Counted from the whole stretch's first letter, positions 26,633-42,061 are shown. The stretch is DNA of 63,962 nt, filler included, from 6 parts of 6 records of this genome joined end to end with filler, not necessarily neighbours in it, one strand, 5' to 3'. Numbers and translations: made by a program. The notes: a model not told the origin generated them from the sequence alone.

Positions 26633-26760
26633 TGCCTCTTCCGGTTACTGCAATAATAAGTGCCTCATAACAGCTGGGTTGTCGCACCAAACGGATTGAA
26701 TCGGTGCGACAGGCTATCTGTGAAGAGATCCGATTTAGCCGGATCGGTTGATTGCTGGAT

Positions 26761-27408
26761 TCAGATTGCCAATTCGCCTGCTGCCTGCTTCGCGCGCGCT
26801 TTGGCCGTGGCCACGGACTCCTCGAAGCGTTTGTCTCCGAATTCCTGATATTCGATGGCGATGGTTTCCACCTTGCGTGCGTCGGCGCCGAGGTAGTGGG
26901 CGCTGGCGGCGATGGCCGGGTCCAAGCCGTTCAGGTGGGCGCGTTCGCCGCCAGGGGCAAAGCCAAACTCCCCGCGCGAGGACAGCACCACGAGCTTTTT
27001 GCCGGTCAGGATCGGTTCGATTGGCGTGTTGCCGCGCGACAGGTCAAAGCTGAAGGTGACACCGACACGCGCGATCAGATCAAACCACGCCTTGAGCGTT
27101 GCGGGCATAGAATAGTTATACATCGGCGCACACAGCGCGATGACATCTGCGGATTTAATCTCGTCAATCAGGGCGTCGGATTCTGCGATCGTCTCTTTCT
27201 GCGAGTCTGTCAGTTCAGCCGGGTCAGTAAAGGCGGCGGCGATCCAGGTTTCGTTGATGAAGGCGGGCGGGTTTAGGCCCACGTCGCGATGGATCACGGC
27301 GCCACCGCCCGAGACGGTCCAGCCTTCCTCAAAGATCTGCGCCAACTCGCGCGTGAGGGACCGGTTGGCCCGGGCGCTGGAATGGATGATAAGCAGGGAT
27401 TTGGGCAT
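26761..27408 (-). CDS. azoR: FMN-dependent NADH:quinone oxidoreductase/azoreductase
   Basis: HSSAR..SLTR, PMYNYSMPATLKAWFD, RVGVTF and SSRG flavodoxin-2 motifs. Confidence 0.88.
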   Translation of the reverse strand: MPKSLLIIHSSARANRSLTRELAQIFEEGWTVSGGGAVIHRDVGLNPPAFINETWIAAAFTDPAELTDSQKETIAESDALIDEIKSADVIALCAPMYNYSMPATLKAWFDLIARVGVTFSFDLSRGNTPIEPILTGKKLVVLSSRGEFGFAPGGERAHLNGLDPAIAASAHYLGADARKVETIAIEYQEFGDKRFEESVATAKARAKQAAGELAI

Positions 27409-27435
27409 GTTCAGGTGCTCCTGTAGGTGGGAATG

Positions 27436-27903
27436 TCAGACGTCAAAAGGCGTGTCATCCAGCCCGTTGGCGGCGAAGGTGGCGGTGATCGAGGGCACGA
27501 TGTCCCAGGCTTGGCCGGCGATGGCCCAGCCGTCGGGATTGCGCACCAGCAGGAAGGCGCTGATATCCTCGGTCACCTCGGATTGATTTTCATGCATCTC
27601 GCAACCTGCGAGTGCGACGGCGACGCCGCCAGCGATCCAGATTTGCAGCCCGCGCCCCTTTTCCTGAAACACCGGCAAGGCACCGCTGTCCCGCAGACCT
27701 GCCATACGGCCCGCAAATTGTTGCGAGGTCTGAGGTGTCGCGGGGCGCGTCGAGGCGTATAGCTGGGCCGCTGGCAGGTAGGCGGCAGTCAGCGCGGTGG
27801 TGTCCGGCGGGGTAACATCATCCCAGCAAAGCGCACGAAACTGGCGTGCGATCAGGCCTGCGATTTCGGCCCGGTCGGTCTCGATCGTAGGGGGTTCGGT
27901 CAT
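27436..27903 (-). CDS. NTF2/SnoaL-like (DUF4440-type) protein
   Basis: 155 aa; helix-then-strands pattern ending FLLVRNPDGWAIAGQAWD; coupled to the amidase (ATGA). Confidence 0.65.
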   Translation of the reverse strand: MTEPPTIETDRAEIAGLIARQFRALCWDDVTPPDTTALTAAYLPAAQLYASTRPATPQTSQQFAGRMAGLRDSGALPVFQEKGRGLQIWIAGGVAVALAGCEMHENQSEVTEDISAFLLVRNPDGWAIAGQAWDIVPSITATFAANGLDDTPFDV

Positions 27904-29189
27904 GCAAGAACCTCTGACGTCAGGGGAGAGAGAAGGGATTCAAGCTGTTGGGCCACTGAGAGCACGCGGTCGTCATCGCCTGATACGCCAGCCACAGTAA
28001 GCGAGTGACCCGGGCGCCTGCCGCAGGGCAAGGCGAGCGAGGGCATGTCGAGGTAGGCACCAAGCATGCTCAGCCGCAGGATACGGGTGTTCTCGGTCGC
28101 AAAGGCTTGTGGGTCATTTTGTACAACCTTTAGCGGTGGCGGGGGTGCCGGGAGCGTCGGGATAATAAGGAGGTCACCGTCCAACTGCCTCGCGATCTCA
28201 GTTTGCAGAGTTGCACGAGCAGCACGTATGCAAGCGGCCGCAGCAGGCGCGATGGTTTTTGATGTATTCAGACGCTGACGGATCACTGGGTCCATGCTGG
28301 GATCGTCGAGGTCGCAAAGACGAGAGAGGATGTCAGGTGCTTCGATGGCCACAAGAGTACCGCAAGTGTGGAACAGCTCGTTCAGGTCATCAAGGACCGG
28401 CAGCTCTCGAACTTCAATTCTATGCCCTGCACAGGCCAGTTCGCGTGCAGCGCGGGCGAACATCGCCCGCATCTCCGGATGCAGAGGTTCCAAGTGTTTG
28501 GGGTCAGGAACGATAAGCCGAGGCACTGGAATGTCTGAGAGCCGTGTTTTTTCGCCACGCAAAGCCATGTCCAGTTGCAGCAGGGATGCCATGTTGTGCG
28601 CCATCGGCCCTGGTGTATCGAGCGAAGGGGCCAGAGGAACGATACCTTTGCCGTTGTATCGCCCAAGTGTTGGTCGGAACCCGAAGATGCCCTGACAGGC
28701 GGCTGGCACGCGTGTGGATCCCGAAGTATCCGTGCCAACAGCCATGTCCGCGATCCCAAGTGACACTGCTGTGGCGCAGCCTGAGGAGGAACCTCCTGGC
28801 ACCAAATCCGGGTCCAGAGCATTGCGTGCCGTGCCGAAATGTGGGTTCAAACCTAGGCCGGAAAACGCGAATTCTGACATGTTGGCGTGCCCCATGGGCA
28901 GCCCGCCCGCATCCAACAACCGCCGCACCAACGGGGCGCAATCGGTCGCTGGCGCGGCGACCAAACAGCGTGATCCGGCGGTGGTGGGCAGGCCGCGTAT
29001 GTCGATGTTGCCCTTGATCGCCACCACGCGACCCTCAAGAAGGCCGGGGGTCTGACCATGCGCAGTGCGCGCATCAAAGCTGCGCGCTAGATCATACAGC
29101 TGCGCGTCGTTGCGGCGCAGGAAGACGTTGCGCGCCGAGGGATGATCAGCGCGCCCCAGAGCGCGCGCCAGATGCTGAACCGAAGACAT
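27900..29189 (-). CDS. Amidase-signature family enzyme
   Basis: AIKGNID (Lys), PGGSSSG and GTDTSGSTRVPA (Ser-cisSer-Lys triad). Confidence 0.88.
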   Translation of the reverse strand: MSSVQHLARALGRADHPSARNVFLRRNDAQLYDLARSFDARTAHGQTPGLLEGRVVAIKGNIDIRGLPTTAGSRCLVAAPATDCAPLVRRLLDAGGLPMGHANMSEFAFSGLGLNPHFGTARNALDPDLVPGGSSSGCATAVSLGIADMAVGTDTSGSTRVPAACQGIFGFRPTLGRYNGKGIVPLAPSLDTPGPMAHNMASLLQLDMALRGEKTRLSDIPVPRLIVPDPKHLEPLHPEMRAMFARAARELACAGHRIEVRELPVLDDLNELFHTCGTLVAIEAPDILSRLCDLDDPSMDPVIRQRLNTSKTIAPAAAACIRAARATLQTEIARQLDGDLLIIPTLPAPPPPLKVVQNDPQAFATENTRILRLSMLGAYLDMPSLALPCGRRPGHSLTVAGVSGDDDRVLSVAQQLESLLSPLTSEVLA

Positions 29190-30076
29190 CAGAACAGGAC
29201 AGGTTTGGTGTAATAAGGCAGCTCCTCCACCCGGACGGCGGCGGGGTCCTTGGCGGCCTCGGCCCGGACGTGGGCGGCGATTTCATGCATCGGGGCAAAC
29301 CAGACGTCGCCGCGTTCCAGCACGGTTTCCAACCACTTTTCGACCTGACGCCAGCGCGCCAGTCGCCCCGTAAGGAACGGGTGCCAGATAGCCAGCCAGA
29401 ACCCTCCGGCCTCATACTGAGCGTCGAATTCTTCCCAAAAGCCCTGCAGACCCTGAGTGGGTCCGGCGACGGGCATCATATAGCCAATTTCGTCGTAATG
29501 GGCAAAGGGGGGCCAGTCATCGGTGCCCCAATGCACTGGGAGCTCGACCAAAGAGCCCTGAGCTGTCTTCATCAGATAGGGGATGTCGTCTGCCATCAGC
29601 GAGCTTTCGTATTCGAAGCCATGTTCGATCATCAGGTCGATGACGGTCTGATTGACGTTGTAAACCGGCGCGCGATAGCCCTTGGGCGTGTTGCCGACAA
29701 CGCGCTTGTGAGCTTCGAGCGTGCGTTCGAACCATTCGCGCTGTTCGGTGGGGCCGTGGGCGGTGGGATCCTCGTGCAGATAGCCGTGATGGCCGATCTC
29801 ATGGCCGTCCTTCAGGATCATCTCCATCGTGTCTGGATATTGTTCGACCACCCAGCCGGGGACAAAGAACGACTGTTTCAGCCCAAATTTGCGATAGGTT
29901 TCGAGGATCCGGGGGATGGCGACGGTGGGGCCATAGCGACCCATTGAGATAGGGTAGAGCCGGTCATGCCCGTCCTTGGGGCGCGAGATGTGGATCAGGC
30001 TGTCGGCGTCGATGTCAAAGCTGATGGCGCAGGCGCACCGCGCTCCGTTCGGCCATTTGATCGGATTCCGGATCAT
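29189..30076 (-). CDS. Polysaccharide-deacetylase-fold hydrolase (PuuE allantoinase/PgdA-like)
   Basis: WPNGARCACAISFDID, SFFVPG, HEIGHHGYLHE, GYRAP and WHPFLTGR; start overlaps the amidohydrolase stop. Confidence 0.85.
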   Translation of the reverse strand: MIRNPIKWPNGARCACAISFDIDADSLIHISRPKDGHDRLYPISMGRYGPTVAIPRILETYRKFGLKQSFFVPGWVVEQYPDTMEMILKDGHEIGHHGYLHEDPTAHGPTEQREWFERTLEAHKRVVGNTPKGYRAPVYNVNQTVIDLMIEHGFEYESSLMADDIPYLMKTAQGSLVELPVHWGTDDWPPFAHYDEIGYMMPVAGPTQGLQGFWEEFDAQYEAGGFWLAIWHPFLTGRLARWRQVEKWLETVLERGDVWFAPMHEIAAHVRAEAAKDPAAVRVEELPYYTKPVLF

Positions 30077-31623
30077 GATGTTTCCTTTCCTGTCAGCAGG
30101 GGGCGGGCGCCGTAGCGCTGCACCGCGGGATGTGTGTCGGCGTGGTCGTGGTCCCAACGTGCGTACCAATCGATCAACCAGGGGCGCAGATCGGCCTGCA
30201 GCGCGCGGTGGGCTGGATCTGGGGGATTGGCGTCGAGAGCGGCGTGCAGATCTGCGGTCAGGGCGTCTGCGTCGATGCCGATCGGGGCGCCGTTGCGCAG
30301 CATGGGGCGTCCGCCGACCAGCACGTCGCGTACGTCGTCCGCCCTAGCGCGGCCAACGATCAGGTCGACCGGATCGGCGGCGGGGTCGGTCCAGGGTTTA
30401 AGCAGTCGGGACAGGTCCAGCACCACCGCATCGGCGAGGAAGCCGGGGTGCAACTGGCCTAGCTCATCGGCGCGGCCCAGCAGCTGTGCGCCTGCAATCG
30501 TTGCCATCTCTAGCACGTCCCGTGCGTCGAGCGAGGGGCCTGAGGCATGGGGGGCGCGGTTCAAGTTTAAGGCGAGGCGCATTTCGGCGAACATGTCCTC
30601 ATCGCCTGCCAGCGTCGTGCCATCCATGCCAAGTGCAGTGGTAATGCCAGCGGCACGCATCCACGCAGCGGGCGCCACGCCCGCGCGTAGACGAAGGTTT
30701 GAGCCGGGGTTGTGGCTGATCTGCGAGCCCGCCCGGCTGATCTGATCCATATCAGCATCGGTCGCCCAGACCGCGTGGGCCAGCGACAGTCGGTCGTTCA
30801 ACAGGCCGAGGCGTGTGAAATGGTGGATCACCGAATGGTCGCGGATGCGCGGGCTTTCGATGCTTTCATAGTGGCTCTCTAACGCGTGGGTCTGCACCCG
30901 CGTATCAAGCCGCTCTGCATGGCGCGCGATGTCGGTGAGCAGGTCGACGGGCGTCCATTGCGGGCCTGTGGGGCCAAACCAGACGTCGATCTGACCATCG
31001 TTTTCACCGATCAGTTCGCCCAGTAGATCCAGATAGTCGGCAGGCGTTAAACGCTGACGTGACGCTTCGGCTTTTTGCAGGCGTTCGCGCAGGGCGGGGG
31101 GCAGGGTGGCGAGGAAACCGGCCTCTTCCCCTGCGCCATGGACTATGCGGTTTTGCCAGCGCTCGCCAGGCGCCATCACGGCGCGCAGACCAGCTTGGCG
31201 GTAGGCTTGCGCCTTAGCCCGCAGACGGGTTTCGGCGCGAATGCGGTCGGGACCGGCGGCGCACATATCGACCACGGTCGTCACACCGCTTTTCAGCAGG
31301 CGCAGGGCTGCGTGGCTGGTGGAAAGCGCTGGCGACAGATCGACCAAGGCGGGGCCATTGAACATCCACGGTTCCAGGAAATCATCCGCGACGGCCTGAT
31401 TGACCAGCTCCACCCCGTAGCAATGGTGATGGGCGTTGATCAGGCCGGGGAGGATGGCGCTGTCACCTCCGCCAAGTTCGGTCACGCCGGGGTGGCGGGT
31501 GCGCATGTCGTGGGCAGGTCCGACCTCGACCACCCGGCCGCGACGCACCAGCAGCGCATGATCCATGCGGATGTCGCGGGCGGACAGCACCACCCAGCGA
31601 CCGGAGAGCAAAATGTCAGTCAT
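30073..31623 (-). CDS. Metal-dependent amidohydrolase (Atz/Trz/deaminase subfamily)
   Basis: PGLINAHHH, QTHALES, LAHAVW, HNPGSNLRL, LGMDG and ADAVVLD. Confidence 0.88.
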   Translation of the reverse strand: MTDILLSGRWVVLSARDIRMDHALLVRRGRVVEVGPAHDMRTRHPGVTELGGGDSAILPGLINAHHHCYGVELVNQAVADDFLEPWMFNGPALVDLSPALSTSHAALRLLKSGVTTVVDMCAAGPDRIRAETRLRAKAQAYRQAGLRAVMAPGERWQNRIVHGAGEEAGFLATLPPALRERLQKAEASRQRLTPADYLDLLGELIGENDGQIDVWFGPTGPQWTPVDLLTDIARHAERLDTRVQTHALESHYESIESPRIRDHSVIHHFTRLGLLNDRLSLAHAVWATDADMDQISRAGSQISHNPGSNLRLRAGVAPAAWMRAAGITTALGMDGTTLAGDEDMFAEMRLALNLNRAPHASGPSLDARDVLEMATIAGAQLLGRADELGQLHPGFLADAVVLDLSRLLKPWTDPAADPVDLIVGRARADDVRDVLVGGRPMLRNGAPIGIDADALTADLHAALDANPPDPAHRALQADLRPWLIDWYARWDHDHADTHPAVQRYGARPLLTGKETS

Positions 31624-31638
31624 GAGATGTCAGCTGGC

Positions 31639-32334
31639 TCAACCCCGGTCGACGCGGAACGTCAGCCCCGCGGGAGAGGTTCCCTCTCCGTTCACTGGCG
31701 TCACGTCCTGCGGGCAGGCAGACATCACGGCGATTACATTCATGTCGGCTCTGAACTCCAAATAATCGCCGGGTTTGGACACCGGAGGTTCAAAGCTGAG
31801 CGACCCGTCGGGCTGCACCGGCACGTTCATCCACAGATTGAAAGGCGCGGGAATGGCGGGTGCGCGCAACCCGATGGCGTTCAGCGCCTGACGCAGGTTG
31901 TCGGCGCAGTTTTCGTGATAGTGTTCGACGCCAAGCTGCTGATAGCGGGCGTGATCGCAATTGGCGATCACTGTATCATGAATTCCGGGCGAAGTGTCTG
32001 TTGTGATGGTCATCAGCGACCGGCGCAGGTTCGACGTCACCCCATCCCCAACTTTGGGAAAGATCGACAGGAGCGAGGTGTGAAGATGCTCCATCGAGCT
32101 GTATTCTTGGATGTTATCCACGTTGAAAATCCAGAAATCGCAGACTTGGTAACCGGCCGGGTTGGTGACGGTCAGAACCTCTCCTGCATGGACCCGCACT
32201 GCCATGCCGCAGCGGGCGGGGATGTCATAGGTGCGCCCCGGTTCTGGCGTCCCGTTTGGCGAAATAGCGATATCGAGGCTTTGGTTGGTGCCATCGGGCT
32301 GGCCTGGATCGAATGGGATTGCGGAATCAGTCAT
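31639..32334 (-). CDS. DUF1989 (urea carboxylase-associated family) protein
   Basis: GYQVCD, HDTVIANC, HENCADNL, PFNLWMN and SACPQD cysteine pattern. Confidence 0.85.
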   Translation of the reverse strand: MTDSAIPFDPGQPDGTNQSLDIAISPNGTPEPGRTYDIPARCGMAVRVHAGEVLTVTNPAGYQVCDFWIFNVDNIQEYSSMEHLHTSLLSIFPKVGDGVTSNLRRSLMTITTDTSPGIHDTVIANCDHARYQQLGVEHYHENCADNLRQALNAIGLRAPAIPAPFNLWMNVPVQPDGSLSFEPPVSKPGDYLEFRADMNVIAVMSACPQDVTPVNGEGTSPAGLTFRVDRG

Positions 32335-32402
32335 AGCGTGGACCTTTGTTCGGGGGCAGGGGTGTCACGTCCCAGAAGATACGAAAGCACTTGTTTCGAA
32401 AA

Positions 32403-32417
32403 CTGAGGAAAATTCAG
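32403..32417. promoter_or_regulatory. Putative operator, copy 1 (CTGA-N7-TCAG)
   Basis: CTGAGGAAAATTCAG about 70 bp upstream of the DUF1989 gene. Confidence 0.6.
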
Positions 32418-32532
32418 GCGAAGCGGTAGATATTCTAAGGTTTGATGTGGTCAGAACCCTGTGAAGTGCCTCGGCAGACACCCGGTTAGGCGGGTCCTGG
32501 CAATTTGAAGTTCACCTTATGCCGGGGTTGTT

Positions 32533-33318
32533 TCATCCCTGAACCGCGCCACGATCTGCGTTCAGTTTCTGCCCTGTGATGTTCGCCGCCAACGGAGAAG
32601 CCAGGTAAAGATAGCTGAGCGCAACGTCTTGAGCGTCCTGCACGCCGGAGAGCGATTGTTCGGCGCTGATTTCGTTGGCGATGACATCTTCTGACACGTC
32701 CCGGTCGCGGGCCATTTCCCGCAGCGTGTTCAGCGCCGGGCCGGTCATCACCCAGCCGGGGCAGACGGCGTTGACGCGGATGCCTTTGGGGCCCAGCTCC
32801 TTGGCCAGCACCCGCATGAAGCCGATATTTGCGTGTTTAGAGGCGACATAGGCACCCAGTTCCGGTTCCGCTGTGGTGCCCCAGATCGAGGCGGTGACGA
32901 TGATCCGCCCACCCGATCCCAGCAGCGGCACGGCGGCACGGGTGGTCAGATAGGTGCCCATCACGTTGATGTCGATCACCCGTGCAAAACGCTGGTGCGC
33001 TGCGTCGCTTTGATCGGTGATCGGGGTCACTGCCTCAAGCCCTGCGTTGGCGACAAAGATGTCGAGCGCGGGGAGTTGCGAGAAGACCTCGGCCACGCGG
33101 GTTGCATCGGTGATGTCGCATGTCCAACCAGTAACGTCCTGACCGGTTTCCTCCGCCAGCGTGGCGGCGGCGGTGTGGACGTCATCGCCCTGAGACAGAA
33201 TGTGCACGCAGGCCCCATGCTGGGCGAATGCGCGGGCAACACCGTAGCCGATGCCACGGCTGGCGCCTGTGACCATAACGGTCTGGTGGGTGAAATCGAG
33301 GCCGGGGATCTTGTTCAT
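32533..33318 (-). CDS. SDR-family oxidoreductase
   Basis: TGASRGIG, ANAG, YVASK and NAVCPG. Confidence 0.92.
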   Translation of the reverse strand: MNKIPGLDFTHQTVMVTGASRGIGYGVARAFAQHGACVHILSQGDDVHTAAATLAEETGQDVTGWTCDITDATRVAEVFSQLPALDIFVANAGLEAVTPITDQSDAAHQRFARVIDINVMGTYLTTRAAVPLLGSGGRIIVTASIWGTTAEPELGAYVASKHANIGFMRVLAKELGPKGIRVNAVCPGWVMTGPALNTLREMARDRDVSEDVIANEISAEQSLSGVQDAQDVALSYLYLASPLAANITGQKLNADRGAVQG

Positions 33319-33334
33319 ATCGGGGGCTCCTATG

Positions 33335-33369
33335 AAAAAAGACGGCGCGGGACGGGTCCACGCGCCGTT
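33335..33369 (-). terminator. Intrinsic terminator-like hairpin between the VOC and SDR genes
   Basis: Minus strand ACGGCGCG-T-GGAC-CC-GTCC-CGCGCCGT followed by CTTTTTT. Confidence 0.55.
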
Positions 33370-33390
33370 TCAGGGTCAGGGAGTGTAAAC

Positions 33391-33948
33391 TTAGCCCGCG
33401 TCTGCGGGGGGCGGGGCGGGATAACAGCTTTCCGGTTCGGGATAGTCCCAGTCATCGGGAAAGTGGTAGGTTTCAAAGGTGGTTCCGGTGGCGTCTTCGG
33501 TGTTGAAAAAGGCAAACGCATTGCGCCCCATCCACTTTCCGGACTGCACCATGCGAAAGCCGCGCGCCTCCAGGATGCCGATGCGTTCCTCCCACGGGAT
33601 GTTGTTGCAGTCATAGGCCACGTGGTGAAAACCTGTGCCGTTGCGATCCAGGAAATCCTGAAAGATCGACGGCCCCCAGAGCGGCTGCATCAGCTCCCAA
33701 ATCATGTTCCCGGATTTGGCGAAACAGACCTTGAGCGCGAATTCGCAGGGTTTGCCGTCATAGGTCTGATCGGTGACCGTTTCGGGCGAAAACGTGTAGA
33801 CCGCCCATGGACCAATCCCCAGCCGAGTCAGCCCCTGCATGGTTTTGACGTGATCATCGGTGACGATGCACAGTTCGACCACATCGCCCAACATGGTGTT
33901 GGACAAGGTTTCGTCGCTGAGCACGGATGGGAGGTTTGTCAGGTCCAT
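33391..33948 (-). CDS. VOC-family protein (methylmalonyl-CoA epimerase/glyoxalase-like)
   Basis: LGIGPW, WELMQPL.GPSIF..FL...G.GFHHVA, and final FE metal-ligand pattern. Confidence 0.82.
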   Translation of the reverse strand: MDLTNLPSVLSDETLSNTMLGDVVELCIVTDDHVKTMQGLTRLGIGPWAVYTFSPETVTDQTYDGKPCEFALKVCFAKSGNMIWELMQPLWGPSIFQDFLDRNGTGFHHVAYDCNNIPWEERIGILEARGFRMVQSGKWMGRNAFAFFNTEDATGTTFETYHFPDDWDYPEPESCYPAPPPADAG

Positions 33949-33959
33949 GAGCGCGCGCC

Positions 33960-34421
33960 TTATTTTTCAGCGCCGTCAACGCCGGCGATGGCCAAATGCG
34001 GCAGCGGCATCACGCCCAGCTGAAAGAACAGACCAAGCGTGTCTTCGTGATAGAGGTAGTCCGTGACCTTGCCGTTTTCGTCGAACTTGAACCATTCGGC
34101 ACCGTAAATGTCGACTTTGCGGCCCGTGCCGGGGATCCCGTAGAAATCGCCCTGATGGGTGCCGCGCAGGCGAAAGCGGGACATGACAGTGTCGCCATCC
34201 GCCACCAGGTCAATCGCGTCTTCGTGGATGTCAGGGAAGGCCTCGCGCCAGAAGGCCACCAGCTTTTTGAACCCGTCGCGGCCTGACGGCCAGCCATCCA
34301 AAAGAAGGCCATGGCTTACGTTTTCATCAAAGATTTCGTCAACGCGCTGCATATCGTTCTTGTTCCAGCAGGTGGCGTAGATGTCGGCGACGGTGGCCTT
34401 GTTGCGGTCCTGATCGGTCAT
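33960..34421 (-). CDS. SnoaL-like ester cyclase-family protein
   Basis: AFPD, LVADGDTV and GTHQGDFYGIPGTGRKV motifs; GGAG RBS. Confidence 0.85.
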   Translation of the reverse strand: MTDQDRNKATVADIYATCWNKNDMQRVDEIFDENVSHGLLLDGWPSGRDGFKKLVAFWREAFPDIHEDAIDLVADGDTVMSRFRLRGTHQGDFYGIPGTGRKVDIYGAEWFKFDENGKVTDYLYHEDTLGLFFQLGVMPLPHLAIAGVDGAEK

Positions 34422-34513
34422 GTCGGTCTCCAGTTTCGGGTTGGTCTGAGCTTTGACCTGAACCGTCGCAATCACGAGCCATTGTTGTCACCCGACGAAA
34501 CCTCATCTCAAGG

Positions 34514-34528
34514 CTGAGGAGATTTCAG
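34514..34528. promoter_or_regulatory. Putative operator, copy 2 (CTGA-N7-TCAG)
   Basis: CTGAGGAGATTTCAG in the divergent SnoaL/ABC-SBP region; flanking GCG shared with copy 1. Confidence 0.6.
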
Positions 34529-34752
34529 GCGCGAATCCGCACCCGCCTGTTTAGGAAAAGGGGCAACGCCACTGGGTGTCCCGTTGATCGGGTCCCCAGA
34601 TGGTGTCGATCTGGCCCACGCAAAGGGGGTCATTCACTCAACCAGGCGGACCGGCCCGAAACCTGTGTTTCGGGGGAGGGAGAGGCGCGTGCTATGCATG
34701 GCCGATCGTGCCCGCTCAAGAACCTGAAAAAGTTCCAAACGGGAGGAACCAC

Positions 34753-35967
34753 ATGGCTTTCACGACAACATTCAAGGCGCTCCGGACCGGGGTTGCGGCC
34801 TGCGCAATGACGGCGCTATGCAACATTGCGATGGCGGATAGTATTTCGCTGGGCGCGCCTATTCCGCTGACCGGCTACTTCGCCTCCGACGGTGAAACGA
34901 TGGAACAGGCGATAAACCTCGCCGTGGGCGAGATCAACGCCAAGGGCGGGTTGCTGGGCAGCGAGGTCGAGGTTGTTACCTTCGACATCGGTGACCTGAC
35001 CCCGGACAAACTTGCCGCTGCAGCTGCCAACCTGATTGAACGGCAGGGCGTCAGCGCTTTGATCAACGGCTATGGCGGCATGGGTCCCGATATCCCGGCC
35101 TTTTGTCCCTATGGTATTCCCTACATCCACAATGATGCCGTGGCTGGGGTCATCGACTTGGCCGAACGGATGCGTTGCAATGCGATCTTCAACGCCTCGG
35201 ATATTGACCTGAACTATGGCCGGGCCCAGTTCGACATGGTGGTGAATACCGATTATGCTTTTGAAAACAAACGACTGGCCATCGTTCATGGTGACTATGA
35301 GTGGGACATCAACAACGCCAAATCCATGGCAGAAGCGGCTGAAGCTGCTGGATGGGAAGTCGTTTATGTTCAGGAAGTGCCCTATGATACCGTGGAATGG
35401 ACCGGCATCCAAAGCCAGATCCGTGCTGCGGATCCCGCGCTGATTCATCTGGAGGCGCTGGAGCCTGCGGTCGCCACCACTTTCCTGTCGCAATACAAGG
35501 AAAACCCTGCCGGTTCAGCGTTGCTGAACGTGGGCTATATCGGCGCCACCACCGGGCTGGACGATGTGATTGCACAGGGAAACGCCGAAGGGCTGCTGTC
35601 GTTCACGCTGAACGCGCACCGTGACAATGAGGTCGGCAATGCTTTTGTTGAACGTTGGGAAGCAGCCTATGGGTTCGAACCCTCAGTCAGCCTGGCGGCA
35701 GCTGTTTATGATATGGTCTATATGTGGGCCGCAGCGGTTGAACAGGTCGGTGACGCCGACGATCACGCAGCCGTGGCTGATGCGATCCGAACAATGAAGT
35801 ATGAAGGCCTTGTGGGGACCTTTGACTTTAATGACCGAAACTTTGTCGACAACGGGTCGGATACCCAGCCTGCGCAACTGTTCCAAGTACAGAATGGTGA
35901 ACGGGTGCGTCTGGTGGTGGGCGACCAAAAGGTCGGCGACATCGTGACCCCAGCCTGGGTGCGCTAA
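34753..35967 (+). CDS. HAAT (branched-chain amino acid/amide-type) ABC substrate-binding protein
   Basis: Signal peptide; PLTG...INAKGGLLG, AAAVYD and EGLVGTFDF; GGGAGG RBS. Confidence 0.9.
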   Translation: MAFTTTFKALRTGVAACAMTALCNIAMADSISLGAPIPLTGYFASDGETMEQAINLAVGEINAKGGLLGSEVEVVTFDIGDLTPDKLAAAAANLIERQGVSALINGYGGMGPDIPAFCPYGIPYIHNDAVAGVIDLAERMRCNAIFNASDIDLNYGRAQFDMVVNTDYAFENKRLAIVHGDYEWDINNAKSMAEAAEAAGWEVVYVQEVPYDTVEWTGIQSQIRAADPALIHLEALEPAVATTFLSQYKENPAGSALLNVGYIGATTGLDDVIAQGNAEGLLSFTLNAHRDNEVGNAFVERWEAAYGFEPSVSLAAAVYDMVYMWAAAVEQVGDADDHAAVADAIRTMKYEGLVGTFDFNDRNFVDNGSDTQPAQLFQVQNGERVRLVVGDQKVGDIVTPAWVR

Positions 35968-36074
35968 CGCCCCTTCCGGACCGGTTGCGCCCCCCGGGCA
36001 CACCCCTCACGCCCCAGGACGTGGCCGGTCCTCTTTTCGCACATCCCTACAGATAGTATGAGGAGCGTCCACCA

Positions 36075-36803
36075 ATGACGCAAATGTCGCTGGAAAATGT
36101 CACCATGCAGTTCGGGCCTTTCCGGGCGCTGACGGACATGTCCTTTCACATCGACCGGGGAGAGATCCTAGGTGTCGCCGGGCCGAACGGGGCCGGGAAA
36201 TCGACGTTGATGAATGTTTGCACCGGGGGTCTGCGTGCCTCTTCCGGGCAGGTGATCTTCAACGGGCGCGATGTTACCCGGTTCAAACGGCATGCGCGCT
36301 GCGGGCTGGGGATAGCGCAGACGTTCCAGATCCCGACGCTGCTGTCGTCGCTGACGGTGGGGGAGAACCTGCTGGCGGGCCAGATTTTCGGGGCCGAGGC
36401 GCGGGGCGAGCCGACCGGGATCTCGATGGATGAGATCCTGTTTTTGACCCAGCTGGAAAACAGTCTGGAACTGGACGCCGCGCAGGCTGACCTGCTGACC
36501 CGCAAGCGGATCATGCTGGGCGCGGCTTTGGCGACGGGGCCTGAAATCATCTTTATGGACGAACCACTTGGCGGGCTGAACGCCCAAGAGATCGTGGAAT
36601 TCCTGCAGGTTATCCGACACGTGCGCGAAGAGCTGGGGATCACCATCGTCATGGTTGAACACAAAACCCGCGCGCTGGCTGAAATCGCCGACCGGGTGCT
36701 GATTATCAACTTTGGAGAGTTCGTGATGCTGGATACGCCGCAGGTAGTGCTGAACGACGACCATGTGGTCGAGATTTATCTGGGGAAGAAGCACGATGCT
36801 TGA
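36075..36803 (+). CDS. HAAT ABC ATP-binding subunit (LivG-like)
   Basis: GPNGAGKS, TFQ, MDEPLGG, VEH and IYLG. Confidence 0.92.
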   Translation: MTQMSLENVTMQFGPFRALTDMSFHIDRGEILGVAGPNGAGKSTLMNVCTGGLRASSGQVIFNGRDVTRFKRHARCGLGIAQTFQIPTLLSSLTVGENLLAGQIFGAEARGEPTGISMDEILFLTQLENSLELDAAQADLLTRKRIMLGAALATGPEIIFMDEPLGGLNAQEIVEFLQVIRHVREELGITIVMVEHKTRALAEIADRVLIINFGEFVMLDTPQVVLNDDHVVEIYLGKKHDA

Positions 36804-37470
36804 GGTCGAAGGGATCAACGCCTTTTACGGCGATTTTCACGTGCTGCATGACGCCTCTCTGTCTGTGAACAAGGGCGAGTTGGTCGCCGTCGTCGGCGCC
36901 AATGGCCATGGCAAGAGCACGCTGTTAAAGGCGATCTGCGGCCTGACCCCGGTGAAATCCGGCGCGATCCGGTTTGATGGCGGTGACATCGCGGACCTGA
37001 AAGCGCCGCAACTAGTAAGGCAGGGGCTGGTTTACGTTGCCGAAGATCGCCGCCTGTTCCCGGATATGACCGTGTTGGAAAATCTGCTGCTGGGTGCCTA
37101 TTTGCCTGCTGCGCGGGCAGCGGAGAAACACAACCTCGACCGGGTATTTTCGCTTTACCCGCGTTTGGCGGAACGCCGCAACCAGCTGTGCCGCTCGCTG
37201 TCAGGAGGCGAGGCGCAAATGGTCGCGCTGGGGCGTGGGCTGATGTCCGATCCGACGTTGCTGGCGATTGATGAACCTTCGCTGGGCCTCGCGCCGAACC
37301 TGACCGAAACCATGCTTCAGACCGTGTCCCAGCTGAACAAGGACGGCCTGACCGTGTTGATCGTCGAACAAAGCCTCGCGCTGATGAAAGGTATGATCGA
37401 CCGGGTTTATTCGATCGAAGAAGGCGTCTTAAGCGAAACCGACACTGACAACATGCAGGAGGTCCTATGA
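36796..37470 (+). CDS. HAAT ABC ATP-binding subunit (LivF-like)
   Basis: GANGHGKS, LSGGEAQM and DEPSLGLAP. Confidence 0.92.
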   Translation: MLEVEGINAFYGDFHVLHDASLSVNKGELVAVVGANGHGKSTLLKAICGLTPVKSGAIRFDGGDIADLKAPQLVRQGLVYVAEDRRLFPDMTVLENLLLGAYLPAARAAEKHNLDRVFSLYPRLAERRNQLCRSLSGGEAQMVALGRGLMSDPTLLAIDEPSLGLAPNLTETMLQTVSQLNKDGLTVLIVEQSLALMKGMIDRVYSIEEGVLSETDTDNMQEVL

Positions 37471-38339
37471 CCCAGATCCTGGAAATCCTAATCAGCGGCA
37501 TTACCCAGGGTGCCGTCTATTGCGTGGTCGCTGTAGGGCTGTCGCTGGTCTATGGCGCGTCACGCATTTTGAATTTTGCCCATGGCTCGCTTTATTCGTT
37601 GGGGGGCTTCCTGGCCTGGTATCTGGTCGCAGGTGGCCCGGACCTGCCGCTGTGGCTGGTGGTTCTGCTGGTGCTGCCGGTGCTGGCGCTGACCGGTATC
37701 GGGATCGAACGCGCCATCATTCGCCCCCTGCGCGGGTCTGAGAACTGGAAGATCAACACGATCATGGTCACGCTGGGCCTCGCATTCATCATCGAAAACG
37801 GGCTGCAACTGGTGTTCGGCCCCGGCACCCGCACGATCGACCCCTTTGTTGAGGGCACGTTGAGTGTCGGTGGCATCACCATCACCTGGTACAAACTGTC
37901 GATCTTTGTGATCGCGCTGGCCCTGGTGGGTGCGCTTGAATTCTTCTTGTCGTCGACTCGATACGGTCAGGCGGTGCGCGCGGTCAGTCAGGACATGCAG
38001 GGTGCCAATCAGGTGGGGATCAATGTCAATCAGATCTTTGGCCTGACATTCGCCCTGTCGGTGGTGCTGACCGGAATCGCGGGCATCCTGCTGGCGCCGG
38101 TGTTCTTGGTGTCACCGTTGGGGGGCTGGGCGCCCTTCCTCAAGGCCTTTGTCATCGTGGTTCTGGGCGGCCTGGGCAGCACCAAAGGCGCCTTTGTCGC
38201 GGCTTTCATCCTCGCCGTGCTCGAAGCGTTCGTCATTTTCTATATCGGCCCAAGCTGGGCCATGCCGGCCTGGCTGCTGATGCTGATAATCGTGCTGATG
38301 ATCCGTCCCAAGGGTCTGTTCGGTGTGTGGGAGAACTGA
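37467..38339 (+). CDS. HAAT ABC permease (LivH-like)
   Basis: ILNFAHG, GQAVRAVSQD, VVLGGLGS and RPKGLFG. Confidence 0.92.
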   Translation: MTQILEILISGITQGAVYCVVAVGLSLVYGASRILNFAHGSLYSLGGFLAWYLVAGGPDLPLWLVVLLVLPVLALTGIGIERAIIRPLRGSENWKINTIMVTLGLAFIIENGLQLVFGPGTRTIDPFVEGTLSVGGITITWYKLSIFVIALALVGALEFFLSSTRYGQAVRAVSQDMQGANQVGINVNQIFGLTFALSVVLTGIAGILLAPVFLVSPLGGWAPFLKAFVIVVLGGLGSTKGAFVAAFILAVLEAFVIFYIGPSWAMPAWLLMLIIVLMIRPKGLFGVWEN

Positions 38340-38340
38340 G

Positions 38341-39336
38341 ATGTCATTAGGCAAAACCAAATCCGCAACCCCGCTGATCGTGTCGGTCTTCACCGGCGCC
38401 GGGCTGAAACAGCAATCGCTGATCTATTGGCTGGTGATCGCCGCGCTGGCTCTTGCCGGCGGGCTGATCGGAGACAGCTATATCCGCCATATCTTTATCC
38501 TGGTGTTCATCTGGTGCGTGGTGATCGCCAGCTGGGATCTGATCCTGGGCTATGCCGGTATCTTTAACTACGCGCAGTTGGTGTTCTTTACCTTTGGCGC
38601 CTATGGATCAGCCATGCTTTCGATCTATGCCGGGTTGACGCCGCTGTTGGCCATTCTGGCGGCGGCTGGCATAGGCGCGGTGATCGGCGTGGTGATCGCA
38701 GTGCCGAGCCTTAGGCTCAAGGGCGAATATGTGGCGCTATTCACCTTTGCCGTGCATCTGGCGCTGCCGCCGCTGATCCAGCAGGGCAGGGCCATTGGTA
38801 TGGGTGGTAATACTGGCCTGCTGGGAATCCCATGGCTGAACCTGTTCGGCTATCAGGTGTCGCCGATCGACAAACTGACCTGGTATTGGGTGTCGCTGGC
38901 GATTGGGGCGATTTGTGTCTACCTGATCTACTTTGTGATCCTGCGGGGACGGATGGGGTTGGCGTTCATTGCGATGCGGGACGCAGACACATTCGCGCAG
39001 GCCATCGGGGTGAATGAATACCGCTACAAGCTGTTGGCCTTTGTCGTCTCTGCCGTGTTCACCGCCGTCGCGGGTGGGGTCTACGCCCATTACACCGGAG
39101 TGGTGACGCCCAGGGTGCTGGGGACCGAGTTCTTTCTGATGGCGATGGTGATGCTCGCCATTGGTGGGATGGGCCGGTTCCCCGGCGCGGTTCTGGGGGT
39201 GTTCATCGTGGTGATCGGGAACGAACTGTTGCGCAGTTTCGACGACTATCGCCTGCTGCTGCTGGGTATGGCCGTGGTGCTGACGGTGATCTTCCTGCCG
39301 CAGGGCGTGGCCGGGTTGTTCCGCAAGCGCGGCTGA
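38341..39336 (+). CDS. HAAT ABC permease (LivM-like)
   Basis: LILGYAG, LRLKGEY, AMRD, IGGMG and LPQGVAG. Confidence 0.92.
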   Translation: MSLGKTKSATPLIVSVFTGAGLKQQSLIYWLVIAALALAGGLIGDSYIRHIFILVFIWCVVIASWDLILGYAGIFNYAQLVFFTFGAYGSAMLSIYAGLTPLLAILAAAGIGAVIGVVIAVPSLRLKGEYVALFTFAVHLALPPLIQQGRAIGMGGNTGLLGIPWLNLFGYQVSPIDKLTWYWVSLAIGAICVYLIYFVILRGRMGLAFIAMRDADTFAQAIGVNEYRYKLLAFVVSAVFTAVAGGVYAHYTGVVTPRVLGTEFFLMAMVMLAIGGMGRFPGAVLGVFIVVIGNELLRSFDDYRLLLLGMAVVLTVIFLPQGVAGLFRKRG

Positions 39337-39380
39337 GTCTTCACCTGTTTGAAGTCAGACGGCTGATCCCTTGAGTGGGG

Positions 39381-39719
39381 TCAGCCGTAATTGCGTTCCA
39401 CCCAGCGGTCGAGCTGGGCCACCACCTCGCGCAGGGAATAGCCCTTGGGGGTCAGCCCGTATTCCACATGCGGTGGGAACTTTCGGTATTCGGTGCGTTC
39501 GACCAGGCCGAGCTCCTGCAGGTCGCCCAGAACGTCGCCCATTACTTTCTTCGAGATCCCCTCCATCCGGTTGCGCAGCTCGGTCGCACGCAGGGCGCCG
39601 TCGCCCAGCACATCCACCGTCAGCAGCGCCCATTTGTTCGAGATTCGCGACAGGAACAGGCGCGACGGGCAGGTTGCGGCAAAGACGTTGCCGATCTGGA
39701 ACTCTTCATGTCGGGTCAT
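39381..39719 (-). CDS. HxlR/DUF24-family winged-helix regulator
   Basis: FAATCPSR...ISNKW, GISKKV and PPHVEYGLT. Confidence 0.9.
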   Translation of the reverse strand: MTRHEEFQIGNVFAATCPSRLFLSRISNKWALLTVDVLGDGALRATELRNRMEGISKKVMGDVLGDLQELGLVERTEYRKFPPHVEYGLTPKGYSLREVVAQLDRWVERNYG

Positions 39720-39799
39720 GAGGCGGCCTTTCGCGTGGGCTGGGGGTCCGGGCCAGCTTAGCGGCAGGACGGGGGCAGGACCAAGGCCCCTCGCCGTTT

Positions 39800-39873
39800 C
39801 GTGAAGGGGGAGGAGACGCTCTTTATAACCCTATGTATCCACAGCTTTTTTTCAACGCTCCTCTCCCTTCACG
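39800..39873. repeat. 16-bp inverted repeat with 42-nt AT-rich spacer in the hxlR/amidase divergent region
   Basis: CGTGAAGGGGGAGGAG (39800-39815) pairs with CTCCTCTCCCTTCACG (39858-39873), one mismatch. Confidence 0.75.
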
Positions 39874-39879
39874 CATGGG

Positions 39880-39894
39880 CTGAGCTTTTCTCAG
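39880..39894. promoter_or_regulatory. Putative operator, copy 3 (CTGA-N7-TCAG)
   Basis: CTGAGCTTTTCTCAG about 90 bp upstream of the second amidase, immediately followed by a -35-like TTGCTG. Confidence 0.6.
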
Positions 39895-39984
39895 TTGCTG
39901 GAATCCGGTGGGCGGGGATCCTGTGAACAGAACTGAGCGCCCCGCCAGACCGGGCGCCGTAGACACAACAGGAAAGTATGCACC

Positions 39985-41457
39985 GTGACCGATCTAGCCC
40001 GGCTCAGCGCCACCGAAACCGCCCTTGCCATCCGCGAACACCGCGTCTCTGCGACCGAGGTGATGCAGGCTGCGATCAAGCGGATCGAGGCGGCGGATCC
40101 AAAGTTGAACGCCTTTGTGTTCACCGCTTTTGAGGAGGCGTTGAGAGAAGCGAAGAAGGCGGATGAGGCCGTGGCGCGTGGCGATGCGCTGGGGCCGCTG
40201 CACGGCGTGCCGACCGCGATGAAGGATCTGTTTGATTTCAAACCCGGCTGGCCCAGCACTCTCGGGGGCATCCCGCAGCTGAAGGACAACATCGCCGACA
40301 TGAAATGCGGTTTTGTCGAAAGCATGGAGTCCGCCGGTGCGATCTTTGTTGGCAAAACCAACAGCCCCGCAATGGGCTTTCGTGGCACCACCGACAACGC
40401 GGCCTTTGGTCCAACCGGCAATCCGTTTGACCCCACGCGCAATGCCGGTGGCTCGTCGGGCGGGTCGGCGGCGGCTGTGGCGTCGGGCATGTTGCCGGTA
40501 GCCGAAGGGACCGATGGCGGCGGTTCGATCCGCATCCCGGCGGCCTGGACCAACACCGTGGGGTTTCGCGCCTCGGCTGGCCGTACCCCGTTGCTGGTGC
40601 GGCCCAACGCGTTTGCCAATACGCTGCCCTATATTTTCGAGGGCACGATCACCCGCACTGTTGAGGATGCCATTGTCTCGCTGGGTGTACTGCAGGGCGC
40701 GCATCCGGGCGATCCGAACTGCCACGAAATGGTCAATGACTTCGCCGATGCGGGCCTGCGCGGAATCAAGGGGATGAAGATCGGCTTTAGCCCGAACCTC
40801 GATGTCTTCCCGGTCGAAGGCGAGGTATCCGAGGTCGTCGCCGATGCGGTGAAGGTCTTTGAACAGGCTGGTGCCGAGGTCGAAGAGATCAAGATCGGCC
40901 TGACTCGTGACCAGCGCGAATACAGCGATATCTGGTGCCGTCTGTTCGTGCCGATCATGCGCCATAGCTTTGATGCGATCAAAGCGGGCGGTCTGGACCT
41001 TCTGTCCGACGAGCATCGTCACGGGCTCGCCCCCGATCTGCTGGACTGGGTTGAGCGGGTCGGCCCGGGCTATAGCGCCGATGACCTTTACCGCGATCTG
41101 TCGGTGCGCTCCGAAGTGTTCGACGCCTATCAGGCGACCTTTGCAAAATACGATCTTATCGTGTCGCCCACAGTGACGGCGATGCCCGTCAAGAACACCA
41201 CCGACGGCAACACCAAAGGTCCGTCTGAGATCAACGGCATCGCCATCGACCCGCTGATCGGCTGGTGCCCGACCTTCCTGACCAACTTTACCGGTCACCC
41301 GTCGGTGTCCGTGCCTGCGGGTTTGGGAACGTCCGGCCTGCCGGTCGGTCTGCACATCGCCGGGCGTCGCCAGGCCGATGGTGACGTGCTGGCGGCGGCT
41401 TCCGCATTCGAACGCCTGCGCCCCTGGACGCAGCACTATGACCGGATCGCGCTCTAA
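39985..41457 (+). CDS. Amidase-signature family enzyme
   Basis: GPLHGVPTAMKD, GKTNSP, GGSSGGSAAAVA and GTDGGGSIRIPA; GTG start after AGGA. Confidence 0.92.
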   Translation: MTDLARLSATETALAIREHRVSATEVMQAAIKRIEAADPKLNAFVFTAFEEALREAKKADEAVARGDALGPLHGVPTAMKDLFDFKPGWPSTLGGIPQLKDNIADMKCGFVESMESAGAIFVGKTNSPAMGFRGTTDNAAFGPTGNPFDPTRNAGGSSGGSAAAVASGMLPVAEGTDGGGSIRIPAAWTNTVGFRASAGRTPLLVRPNAFANTLPYIFEGTITRTVEDAIVSLGVLQGAHPGDPNCHEMVNDFADAGLRGIKGMKIGFSPNLDVFPVEGEVSEVVADAVKVFEQAGAEVEEIKIGLTRDQREYSDIWCRLFVPIMRHSFDAIKAGGLDLLSDEHRHGLAPDLLDWVERVGPGYSADDLYRDLSVRSEVFDAYQATFAKYDLIVSPTVTAMPVKNTTDGNTKGPSEINGIAIDPLIGWCPTFLTNFTGHPSVSVPAGLGTSGLPVGLHIAGRRQADGDVLAAASAFERLRPWTQHYDRIAL

Positions 41458-41569
41458 ACTCCCTGCGTTTCCGGTCACCTCCGGACCCGGCCCTCTTGAT
41501 CTCTCCCGAATTCTCTCGGGGGCCGGGTTCCCTTTTGCCAATGAAATCAAAACTTCCAACAGGAGAAAC

Positions 41570-41959
41570 ATGATGAAAACCACCTTGAAGGCCCTCGCGC
41601 TGTCCGCAGCCATGGTTGTTGGCGCTGCCTCCGCCAGCTTTGCCGAAGAGCGCCCGATTACCGACGCCGTGATCGTCGAATATCTGGAGTTCAACCTGGT
41701 CGAAGGTTCCAACCCCGACGCATTCCTGCGCGAAACCCTGGCTATGGATGACGTGCTGGAAGGCTATGACGGGTTCGTCGCCCGCCACCTGGCGCGCAAC
41801 ACCGATGGCTCCTGGGTCGAGGTCGTCTATTGGACCTCACTGGAAACCGCCGAGGCCGCGCTGCCGCGCTTTGTCGAAGATCCGCGTACCAAAGGCTTCC
41901 TAGCGCTGGTCGATGGGGATTCGCTGTCGGTTAAATATTCCAACGTCTTTGAATTCTGA
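41570..41959 (+). CDS. Small secreted protein, dimeric alpha/beta-barrel (ABM-like) predicted
   Basis: AGGAG RBS; signal peptide ending ASFA; GFVARHL...WVEVVYWTSLETAEAA pattern. Confidence 0.65.
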   Translation: MMKTTLKALALSAAMVVGAASASFAEERPITDAVIVEYLEFNLVEGSNPDAFLRETLAMDDVLEGYDGFVARHLARNTDGSWVEVVYWTSLETAEAALPRFVEDPRTKGFLALVDGDSLSVKYSNVFEF

Positions 41960-41961
41960 TG

Positions 41962-42061
41962 NNNNNNNNNNNNNNNNNNNNNNNNNNNNNNNNNNNNNNN
42001 NNNNNTTAATTAATTAANNNNNNNNNNNNNNNNNNNNNNNNNNNNNNNNNNNNNNNNNNNN
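41962..42061. other. Artificial contig linker
   Basis: N-run + TTAATTAATTAA + N-run. Confidence 0.99.

Follow-up and report, generated by a model that had tools for sequence, protein, structure and literature searches.

The third of six contigs joined in a 63,962-nt stretch of DNA (hereafter, the window) carries a group of genes that a first-pass annotation had described as an uncharacterised 16-gene catabolic island. This contig (contig 3), from a marine roseobacter, is probably one piece of a larger locus of modular build for nitrogen scavenging and catabolism, conserved in marine Rhodobacteraceae and present also in Roseibium and some Gammaproteobacteria, which would break down a nucleobase-like, cyclic guanidine or ureide compound by hydrolysis. 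The conserved unit consists of a five-gene core, encoding a flavodoxin-like oxidoreductase (g01), an amidase-signature enzyme (amidase A, g03), a cytoplasmic PuuE/HpPgdA-like hydrolase of the CE4 fold (g04), a cog0402-type amidohydrolase (g05) and a DUF1989 protein (g06), together with an optional module of SnoaL, VOC and short-chain dehydrogenase (SDR) genes (g09, g08 and g07), sometimes accompanied by an ADP-ribosylglycohydrolase gene. The gene set matches no described pathway, as had been supposed: all the specific family models scored below their cut-offs, and the literature searches made returned no description of it.

The evidence for conservation comes from 55 related loci, mostly from Rhodobacteraceae, collected by searching one genome per species with g06. 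All 17 proteins found on contig 3 were compared with these loci by tblastn, and a gene was counted as present when its match reached 40% identity or more and covered half of the query or more. The counts are lower bounds, since nine of these loci span less than 15 kb, and the gene calls in the related loci come from a simple picker of open reading frames (ORFs), which missed some genes found by tblastn. Conservation of the gene set in other genomes, the lack of which the annotation had itself named as a refutation of its claim, was indeed observed. Five other loci, from Pelagimonas, Pseudophaeobacter, two Leisingera and a plasmid of Aliisedimentitalea, contain 15–17 of the 17 genes in largely the same order; among these near-complete loci, L001 and L008 lack g17, and L007 lacks the HxlR gene (g15). 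Three Ruegeria loci contain g01–g14, while g01–g09 are present in one further Ruegeria locus and in Roseibium (L020). The carriers, which also include a metagenome-assembled genome (MAG) of an Oceanospirillaceae member (L053), are marine isolates and MAGs. The RefSeq annotation of the plasmid copy offers generic names only.

The individual genes are not equally frequent. The g04 gene, present in 38 of the 55 loci, is the best conserved gene of the core, with a median identity of 76% across those 38 loci, in all of which it is paired with g06; g05 is found in 27 loci, g03 and g01 in 26 each and g02 in 10, and the complete five-gene core in 25. The three genes of the SnoaL–VOC–SDR triad are present in 11 loci each, and the triad as such in the same number, whereas the importer genes g10–g14 are found in eight, the gene of a second amidase (amidase B, g16) in five, the HxlR gene in four and the gene of a small secreted protein (g17) in three. 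The last three genes are probably accessory, a local add-on, and the 16 genes originally listed (there are in fact 17 within 26761-41959) do not behave as a unit. One might go further and regard contig 3 as a mosaic of independent modules (the core operon, the triad, the importer, and HxlR with amidase B and g17) that share no common substrate. The rarity of those three genes beside the core would agree with this, as would the variation of the importer family from locus to locus, the 198-nt gap between g07 and g06, in which an extra gene sits in some relatives, and the absence of the triad from 14 of the 25 core loci. Nevertheless, such a mosaic appears unlikely. The triad never occurs without the g04–g06 pair, either in the anchored loci (11 of 11) or in an unanchored sample (2 of 2); the association holds across three arrangements and three lineages (L001–L009, L020 and L053); and the nine genes from g09 to g01 lie on the same strand, with intergenic gaps of −4 to 198 nt.

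The unanchored sample drew on 401 genomes from the same family. In two of them a close homologue of g09 was detected, both times at most 3 kb from a g06 homologue, and g06 homologues of at least 60% identity were detected in five. At the level of the phylum, 12 of the 401 genomes sampled had g04 homologues at E ≤ 1e-40. These frequencies of g06 and g04 identify the locus as a rare accessory trait.

Translational overlaps had been claimed for the amidohydrolase, deacetylase, amidase and NTF2-like genes, and all three junctions were read on the DNA: ATGA at g05/g04, TGATG at g04/g03 and ATGA at g03/g02. The importer genes g10–g14 diverge from g09, whose true start may be an ATG near 34421, and g15 diverges from g16. 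Consensus promoter and terminator sites on contig 3 were no more numerous than in shuffled sequences; in that scan, which is at shuffle level overall, a terminator-like hairpin followed by a T run was noted at 33345-33363 (minus strand), between the VOC gene g08 and the SDR gene g07.

Most of the family assignments proceed directly from domain searches. The two amidases, the Atz/Trz-type amidohydrolase and the PuuE/PgdA-like enzyme were recovered with Pfam and NCBIfam, each where the annotation had placed it, and Pfam likewise identified the DUF1989, SDR, VOC, SnoaL and HxlR proteins and the complete HAAT importer. The closest solved relatives of g06 are the structural-genomics DUF1989 protein 3oru/3siy (5e-71) and, at a distance, the trimethylamine N-oxide (TMAO) demethylase Tdm (9q59, 2.5e-14), and its cysteines in the motifs ANCDH, HENCADN and SACPQD align with cysteines of both. 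From this alignment, we take the three cysteines to be the zinc-binding ones that are listed by residue number in the report on Tdm (PMC12560246). The scores of g06 are below the NCBIfam cut-offs for the CgdB type (108.1 vs 284.7 bits), the CgdA type (67.9 vs 205.95) and Tdm (83.6 vs 1100).

The g04 protein is most similar to an uncharacterised protein from Mycobacterium smegmatis (3rxz, 5e-61), followed by HpPgdA (3qbu, 2e-32) and PuuE (3cl6, 1e-12), and its residues D23, D25, H92, H97 and H101 are invariant among 11 homologues. By analogy with these relatives, its reaction is likely to be the hydrolysis of a cyclic amide or of a small amide. Membership in the PuuE/HpPgdA branch could also indicate a variant of the purine/allantoin route, or of the route from creatinine to N-methylhydantoin, in which a deaminase would give a hydantoin-type ring, the PuuE-like enzyme would open it and an amidase would remove the carbamoyl group. 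The chemistry of these pathways suits three successive C–N hydrolases, and in one related locus (L038) the best specific model for the NCS1 permease is that of an allantoin permease. Such a route is still distinctly improbable, considering that g04 scores 67.5 bits with the PuuE model TIGR03212, whose cut-off is 424.6, that contig 3 contains no uricase, hydroxyisourate hydrolase, 2-oxo-4-hydroxy-4-carboxy-5-ureidoimidazoline decarboxylase, allantoicase, creatininase or sarcosine oxidase, and that the DUF1989 protein, the reductase and the triad would be left without explanation.

In g05, residues H65, H67, H246, E249, H283 and D334 are invariant among nine homologues (41–84% identity), the full set (HxH, His, HxxE, His, Asp) of metal and proton-shuttle residues of cog0402-type deaminases. 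Its solved relatives are methylthioadenosine/S-adenosylhomocysteine deaminases, 8-oxoguanine deaminase and triazine hydrolases, AtzA and TrzN among them. The best NCBIfam model is that of the TRZ/ATZ family hydrolases, with 193 bits against a cut-off of 540, and no model at the equivalog level was reached. Both g03 and g16 clearly belong to the amidase signature family (221 and 305 bits, PF01425 cut-off 27). In g03, K59, S134 and S158, the Lys/cis-Ser/Ser catalytic triad of the family, are invariant among seven homologues, and g16 has the GGSSGG motif. The nearest solved relatives of g03 are 2dc0, the allophanate hydrolases 4gyr/4cp8/4iss and AtzE (6c62), but it is below the NCBIfam cut-offs both for AtzE (155.9 vs 461 and 150.3 vs 425.75 bits) and for allophanate hydrolase (182.6 vs 511 and 207.8 vs 487). 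With its 429 residues, it aligns to positions 24–446 of the 600-position allophanate hydrolase model, and thus has no C-terminal domain.

Two SnoaL/NTF2-like proteins had been reported. For g09 this is borne out by PF07366. No Pfam family was matched by g02, relaxed search included, and its assignment comes from the fold: the AlphaFold2 model has a predicted local distance difference test (pLDDT) score of 92.5, Foldseek matches it to NTF2/SnoaL/LinA-type folds (E 2e-7 and weaker), and its look-alikes in the Atlas are NTF2/SnoaL_3 clusters, while AtzH is absent among the fold matches listed. The g01 protein had been called AzoR; this name holds only at the level of the wider family (Flavodoxin_2), the best azoreductase model giving 48 bits against a cut-off of 188 (NCBIfam).

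The similarities of g05 and g03 suggest the question of whether the locus is a marine version of the Atz/Trz clusters for s-triazines of the melamine, ammeline or cyanuric acid type. Besides the TRZ/ATZ model and the AtzA/TrzN structures for g05, and the relation of g03 to AtzE and allophanate hydrolase, one could cite the importer-binding protein of the class B loci described below, which matches AtzT (6pi5), and the NTF2-fold protein that follows the amidase as AtzH follows AtzE. On the other hand, the scores of g05 and g03 remain far from the respective cut-offs, no Pfam match to the cyanuric acid hydrolase/barbiturase family (AtzD/TrzD) was obtained among the 17 proteins of contig 3, the DUF1989 and CE4 enzymes have no Atz counterpart, and the carriers are marine. 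A triazine-degrading cluster is accordingly very improbable.

The importer is complete, with one Peripla_BP_6 binding protein, a pair of ATPases and a pair of BPD_transp_2 permeases encoded consecutively, as expected for the HAAT type. Its proteins resemble LivF, LivG and UrtB–E, with scores below the NCBIfam cut-offs, and the sole good structural match of the binding protein g10 is an unliganded structural-genomics entry (3h5l). As for g17, proposed to be a secreted ABM-like protein, the hydrophobic leader was confirmed, but the likeness to ABM was not: there was no Pfam match even at E 10 and no fold match at E ≤ 0.001, and the model, with secondary structure order beta-alpha-beta-beta-alpha-beta, reaches a pLDDT of 61; several ABM proteins appear among weak fold matches (E 0.012–0.08). 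Polyketide tailoring typically involves SnoaL, ABM-like, SDR and VOC proteins, and from those weak matches and the SnoaL-family score of g09 (102 bits) a small biosynthetic or tailoring cluster might be imagined. This is barely credible for a contig with no synthase, ligase or exporter, which encodes a complete binding-protein-dependent importer and four hydrolases, and whose relatives have importers and LysR/GcvA-like regulators beside the core.

Further information about the substrate was obtained from the parts of the locus that are exchanged between relatives. Class A loci consist of the triad, the core and g02; contig 3 and L001–L008 have the HAAT importer, L009 has only a PotD-like ABC system (a PotD-like protein is encoded in L003 too), and the Roseibium locus L020 has a Bmp/PnrA-type ABC importer. 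In the Oceanospirillaceae MAG (L053), DUF1989, CE4 and amidase genes are located beside a LysR gene and the triad. Class B (15 loci) combines the five-gene core with a Bmp/PnrA-type ABC importer and a GcvA-like LysR regulator. Among the structures matched by the binding protein of this class, encoded for example at L026:4214-5242, are the Bmp-family members AtzT (6pi5), of the atrazine/purine type, and 3s99, and Bmp-type binding proteins are present in 16 of the 55 loci. In class C (eight loci), the CE4 enzyme shares one operon with a PotD-like ABC system and a CDA/TadA-like deaminase, the latter accompanying g04 in place of g05; beside this operon lie genes for an APRT-like phosphoribosyltransferase, a weakly BtpA-like protein and DUF1989. 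Finally, in L038 DUF1989 and the amidohydrolase occur with an NCS1 permease of the nucleobase/allantoin type. The core always adjoins an importer and a regulator.

The presence of nucleoside- or base-type importers and of an alternative nucleobase-type deaminase around the same enzymes favours a nucleobase-like ring or a cyclic guanidine/ureide as the substrate. Enzymes acting on guanidino groups, found near close homologues, point in the same direction: in L023 (9065-10684) a DUF1989 homologue is next to a gene similar to dimethylarginine dimethylaminohydrolase/arginine deiminase, and in L071 (9605-16443) a 60%-identical g04 paralogue is found, without DUF1989, together with TetR, an NMT1-type ABC importer, two SDRs and an arginase-family ureohydrolase, an arrangement suggestive of a sister system that acts on a guanidino compound. 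The nitrogen-rich ring compound postulated by the annotation receives indirect support from the Bmp/PnrA and NCS1 importers and from the CDA-fold deaminase. The ring nature of the substrate and the order of the reactions are inferred, and the data suit a classical heterocycle and a cyclic guanidine or ureide equally. An ADP-ribosylglycohydrolase gene, not present on contig 3, is located beside the SDR gene in L001 and L003 (by Pfam) and in L008 (by record annotation), with ORFs of the same size in L004 and L005, and hints at a ribosylated form of the substrate.

Some other neighbours were noted in the related loci. A DUF1989 homologue in L049 (6558-10660; L052 is similar) stands beside a 2-oxoglutarate-dependent oxygenase, a GFA formaldehyde-activating protein and a GMC oxidoreductase; this stand-alone homologue and that of L023 show 56–66% identity. 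In class B, the flavodoxin-like reductase gene is followed, at the end of the core operon, by a second redox enzyme, a class I pyridine-nucleotide disulfide oxidoreductase (L027:11486-12832), and ORFs of that size are present in L029, L031, L047, L051 and L070. In Pseudophaeobacter (L081:1321-4885) and on the Aliisedimentitalea plasmid (L056:1-1252), the g17 homologue is immediately followed, at the point where contig 3 stops, by a Peripla_BP_4 sugar-type ABC system that may belong to the complete locus.

On this basis, a pathway can be proposed. The HAAT system g10–g14 would import a small amino-substituted N-heterocycle or a cyclic guanidine/ureide of nucleobase-like type, from which g05 would remove hydrolytically the exocyclic amino or imino group. 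The resulting cyclic amide would be opened by g04, as PuuE does with allantoin, and g06 might then hydrolyse an intermediate of the guanidino- or ureido-carboxylate type, by analogy with CgdAB acting on carboxyguanidine. Amidase g03 would free ammonia from a terminal amide or an N-carboxy-amide, and the translationally coupled g02 may handle its unstable product, in the manner of AtzE and AtzH. The reductase g01 could keep a redox-active (quinonoid or imine) form of the ring reduced, while the optional triad, with the ADP-ribosylglycohydrolase of some relatives, could process a carbon or ribosyl moiety if the substrate also occurs in a more elaborate form.

Several considerations weigh against this proposal. 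Its steps and their order are drawn by analogy, and the roles of g01, g02 and the triad are guesses. All the counts over the 55 loci are conditional on DUF1989, the search anchor, and in class C g06 is outside the transcription unit of g04. Distant g04 homologues (30–60% identity) were found in nine further genome stretches from the phylum sample, not counting L070, which duplicates the locus L031; none of them adjoins DUF1989, and none of these stretches pointed to a substrate. With four importer families that are unrelated to each other, the compound acted on could differ from locus to locus. Moreover, a search of the window and four loci with Rfam at gathering thresholds returned two tRNAs, and no riboswitch or other ligand-specific element.

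A more specific version of the proposal can be formulated, namely that the core, with g02 as partner of the amidase and g01 as a quinone-reductase-like flavoprotein, is a dedicated route for nitrogen recovery from a cyclic guanidine, for example a deep oxidation product of guanine or guanosine such as (dehydro)guanidinohydantoin. Ring opening would then directly yield an intermediate resembling carboxyguanidine or allophanate and would dispense with the ATP-dependent carboxylase on which the known guanidine pathway relies, and the ADP-ribosylglycohydrolase and nucleoside-type importers of the sister loci would handle ribosylated forms. A review from 2025 proposes a degradation of oxidised guanine compounds by allantoinase-like enzymes, naming no genes (PMC12623156). 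The chance that this specific version is correct appears slender.

The finding is confined to contig 3, and the limits of this contig are those of the assembly. A scan of the window showed six contigs joined by five artificial linkers of 100 nt, each with the structure N44-TTAATTAATTAA-N44 (Table 1), so that genes lying on separate contigs are not true neighbours, and more than one organism may be represented. The GC content of the six contigs ranges from 0.600 to 0.713, the upper value being that of the left-hand neighbour of contig 3. The island first given as 26761..41959 corresponds to a whole contig bounded by artificial linkers; consequently its ends are assembly ends, and nothing else in the window represents its surroundings in the genome. 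The stop codon of g17 is 2 nt from the end of the contig. Repeats at the ends of the island were considered as att sites or ends of insertion sequences, and were rejected because both are the identical artificial linkers; a broken katG gene and a broken aldehyde dehydrogenase gene at the borders were rejected as traces of insertion because the contig ends cut both genes.

Table 1. Features of the window and of related loci. Positions are those of the window unless a locus is named.
Feature	Position	Strand	Basis or remarks
Artificial linkers	19606-19705, 26533-26632, 41962-42061, 52672-52771, 58759-58858		Repeat search and window scan
Contig 3, carrying the whole finding	26633-41961		15,329 nt, GC 0.607; between linkers 26533-26632 and 41962-42061
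g01, flavodoxin-like NAD(P)H oxidoreductase, core	26761-27408	-	PF02525 Flavodoxin_2, 116 bits
g02, NTF2-fold protein	27436-27903	-	Fold match from model; no Pfam match
g03, amidase-signature enzyme A, core	27900-29189	-	PF01425, 221 bits
g04, PuuE/HpPgdA-like CE4-fold hydrolase, core	29189-30076	-	PF01522 Polysacc_deac_1, 66.6 bits
g05, cog0402-type amidohydrolase, probable deaminase, core	30073-31623	-	PF01979 Amidohydro_1, 147 bits
g06, DUF1989 protein, core, anchor of the locus family	31639-32334	-	PF09347, 168.7 bits
g07, short-chain dehydrogenase (SDR), accessory triad	32533-33318	-	PF13561/PF00106
g08, VOC/glyoxalase-fold protein, accessory triad	33391-33948	-	PF13669 Glyoxalase_4, 47 bits
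g09, SnoaL-like protein, accessory triad	33960-34475	-	PF07366, 102 bits
g10–g14, HAAT-type ABC importer	34753-39336	+	PF13458, 2x PF00005, 2x PF02653
g10, Peripla_BP_6 binding protein	34753-35967	+	PF13458
Two ABC ATPases and two BPD_transp_2 permeases	36075-39336	+	2x PF00005, 2x PF02653
g15, HxlR-family regulator	39381-39719	-	PF01638, 73.8 bits (cut-off 20.8)
g16, amidase-signature enzyme B, accessory	39985-41457	+	PF01425, 305 bits
g17, 129-aa protein with N-terminal hydrophobic leader, accessory	41570-41959	+	Leader read from translation
ADP-ribosylglycohydrolase-family gene	L001:8506-9405; L003:947-1894; L056 (NZ_CP123585.1 89197-90108)

As for the other contigs, a LysR gene at 25008-25919 was considered as a regulator of the cluster and rejected, because it lies outside contig 3 and shares only 27% identity with the LysR proteins of the related loci. 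The contig to which it belongs (contig 2, 19706-26532; GC 0.713, with GC at third codon positions up to 0.90) also encodes a DEAD-box helicase, a long ORF with a GlcNAc 2-epimerase domain at its end, and a catalase-peroxidase of which the contig end leaves the first ~180 residues only. On contig 5, a Hydantoinase_B/oxoprolinase gene, an SDR gene and a DAO-family oxidase gene (56249-58231 and neighbours) form another possible cyclic-amide catabolic fragment, unlinked to the cluster of contig 3. Part of the stretch is contained in 19 marine metagenome DNA runs, two of which contain half of it or more, and no RNA run is listed as containing it; these were not used as evidence.

The stand-alone DUF1989 proteins of the 3ORU type and the PuuE/HpPgdA-like hydrolases of the 3RXZ type are families with crystal structures and no known reaction. 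The locus links both families to each other and to a deaminase, an amidase and an importer, and does so in marine bacteria that can be cultured and manipulated genetically. Cultured carriers are Pseudophaeobacter sp. EL27, Leisingera sp. ANG1 and ANG-M1, Ruegeria atlantica and Aliisedimentitalea scapharcae KCTC 42119. The importer and deaminase swaps provide a natural experiment for narrowing down the ligand. The identity of the substrate would assign functions to both families and add a hydrolytic nitrogen-mineralisation route to the marine cycle of dissolved organic nitrogen, and might reveal a recycling of cyclic guanidines or damaged nucleobases.

Among the known systems, the cyanuric acid operon atzDGEHF of Pseudomonas sp. 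ADP, with the upstream cog0402 hydrolases AtzA, AtzB and AtzC and the binding protein AtzT, offers a close parallel in organization. Both have a cog0402 amidohydrolase, a ring-opening hydrolase and an amidase followed by an NTF2-fold protein, and both would end in ammonia and CO2; AtzT can be compared with the Bmp-family binding protein of the sister loci, and the Atz structures 6c62, 4v1x and 6pi5 are among the matches. In contrast, the putative ring opener of contig 3 is CE4/PuuE-like rather than AtzD, AtzG and a full-length allophanate hydrolase are missing, and a DUF1989 enzyme, a flavodoxin-like reductase and the SnoaL–VOC–SDR module are added.

For g04, the comparison is with PuuE and HpPgdA (HP0310), which belong to the same branch of the CE4/NodB fold, have no signal peptide and share a predicted small closed active site. 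The imidase BpIH can be named beside this small-molecule branch. However, g04 is much closer to 3rxz than to PuuE and retains the Asp/His residues of the metal-dependent CE4 enzymes. The report on HpPgdA describes PuuE as devoid of these residues and argues for a small closed pocket in this CE4 branch, where a signal peptide is missing and the ligand is probably a small molecule (PMC3084791).

The guanidine pathway consists of a guanidine carboxylase, CgdAB with its two DUF1989 subunits, and an allophanate hydrolase (PMC12508155, PMC12623156). Like the present locus, it pairs a DUF1989 enzyme with an amidase of allophanate hydrolase type, within an operon for nitrogen scavenging that includes an ABC importer, but contig 3 has a single DUF1989 gene, no ATP-dependent carboxylase and no guanidine riboswitch. 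The MgdH/MgdL methylguanidine system was also considered; the available portion of its description mentions no deacetylase-fold enzyme. With the TMAO demethylase Tdm (DUF1989 plus GCV_T; 9q59), g06 has in common the three putative zinc cysteines (PMC12560246), but it has no GCV_T domain and no partner handling formaldehyde. In the pterin/lumazine cluster I of Cupriavidus sp. LA-1, a cog0402 deaminase likewise acts first on an amino-heterocycle and is followed by hydrolytic ring chemistry, and a molybdenum lumazine dehydrogenase, an Amidohydro_2 isomerase and a decarboxylase dependent on prenylated flavin mononucleotide are needed (PMC12391406). This cluster was rejected as a model because the molybdenum dehydrogenase, the Amidohydro_2 isomerase pair and a UbiD-type decarboxylase are absent from contig 3.

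In the family tests for AtzE, AtzF, PuuE, CgdAB and Tdm, every curated cut-off was missed. Judging from the sequences, the locus appears to resemble the lower Atz pathway and the guanidine carboxylase pathway in its predicted working, and is a member of neither. We class it as an uncharacterised variant of the hydrolytic clusters for the mineralisation of N-heterocycles and ureides.

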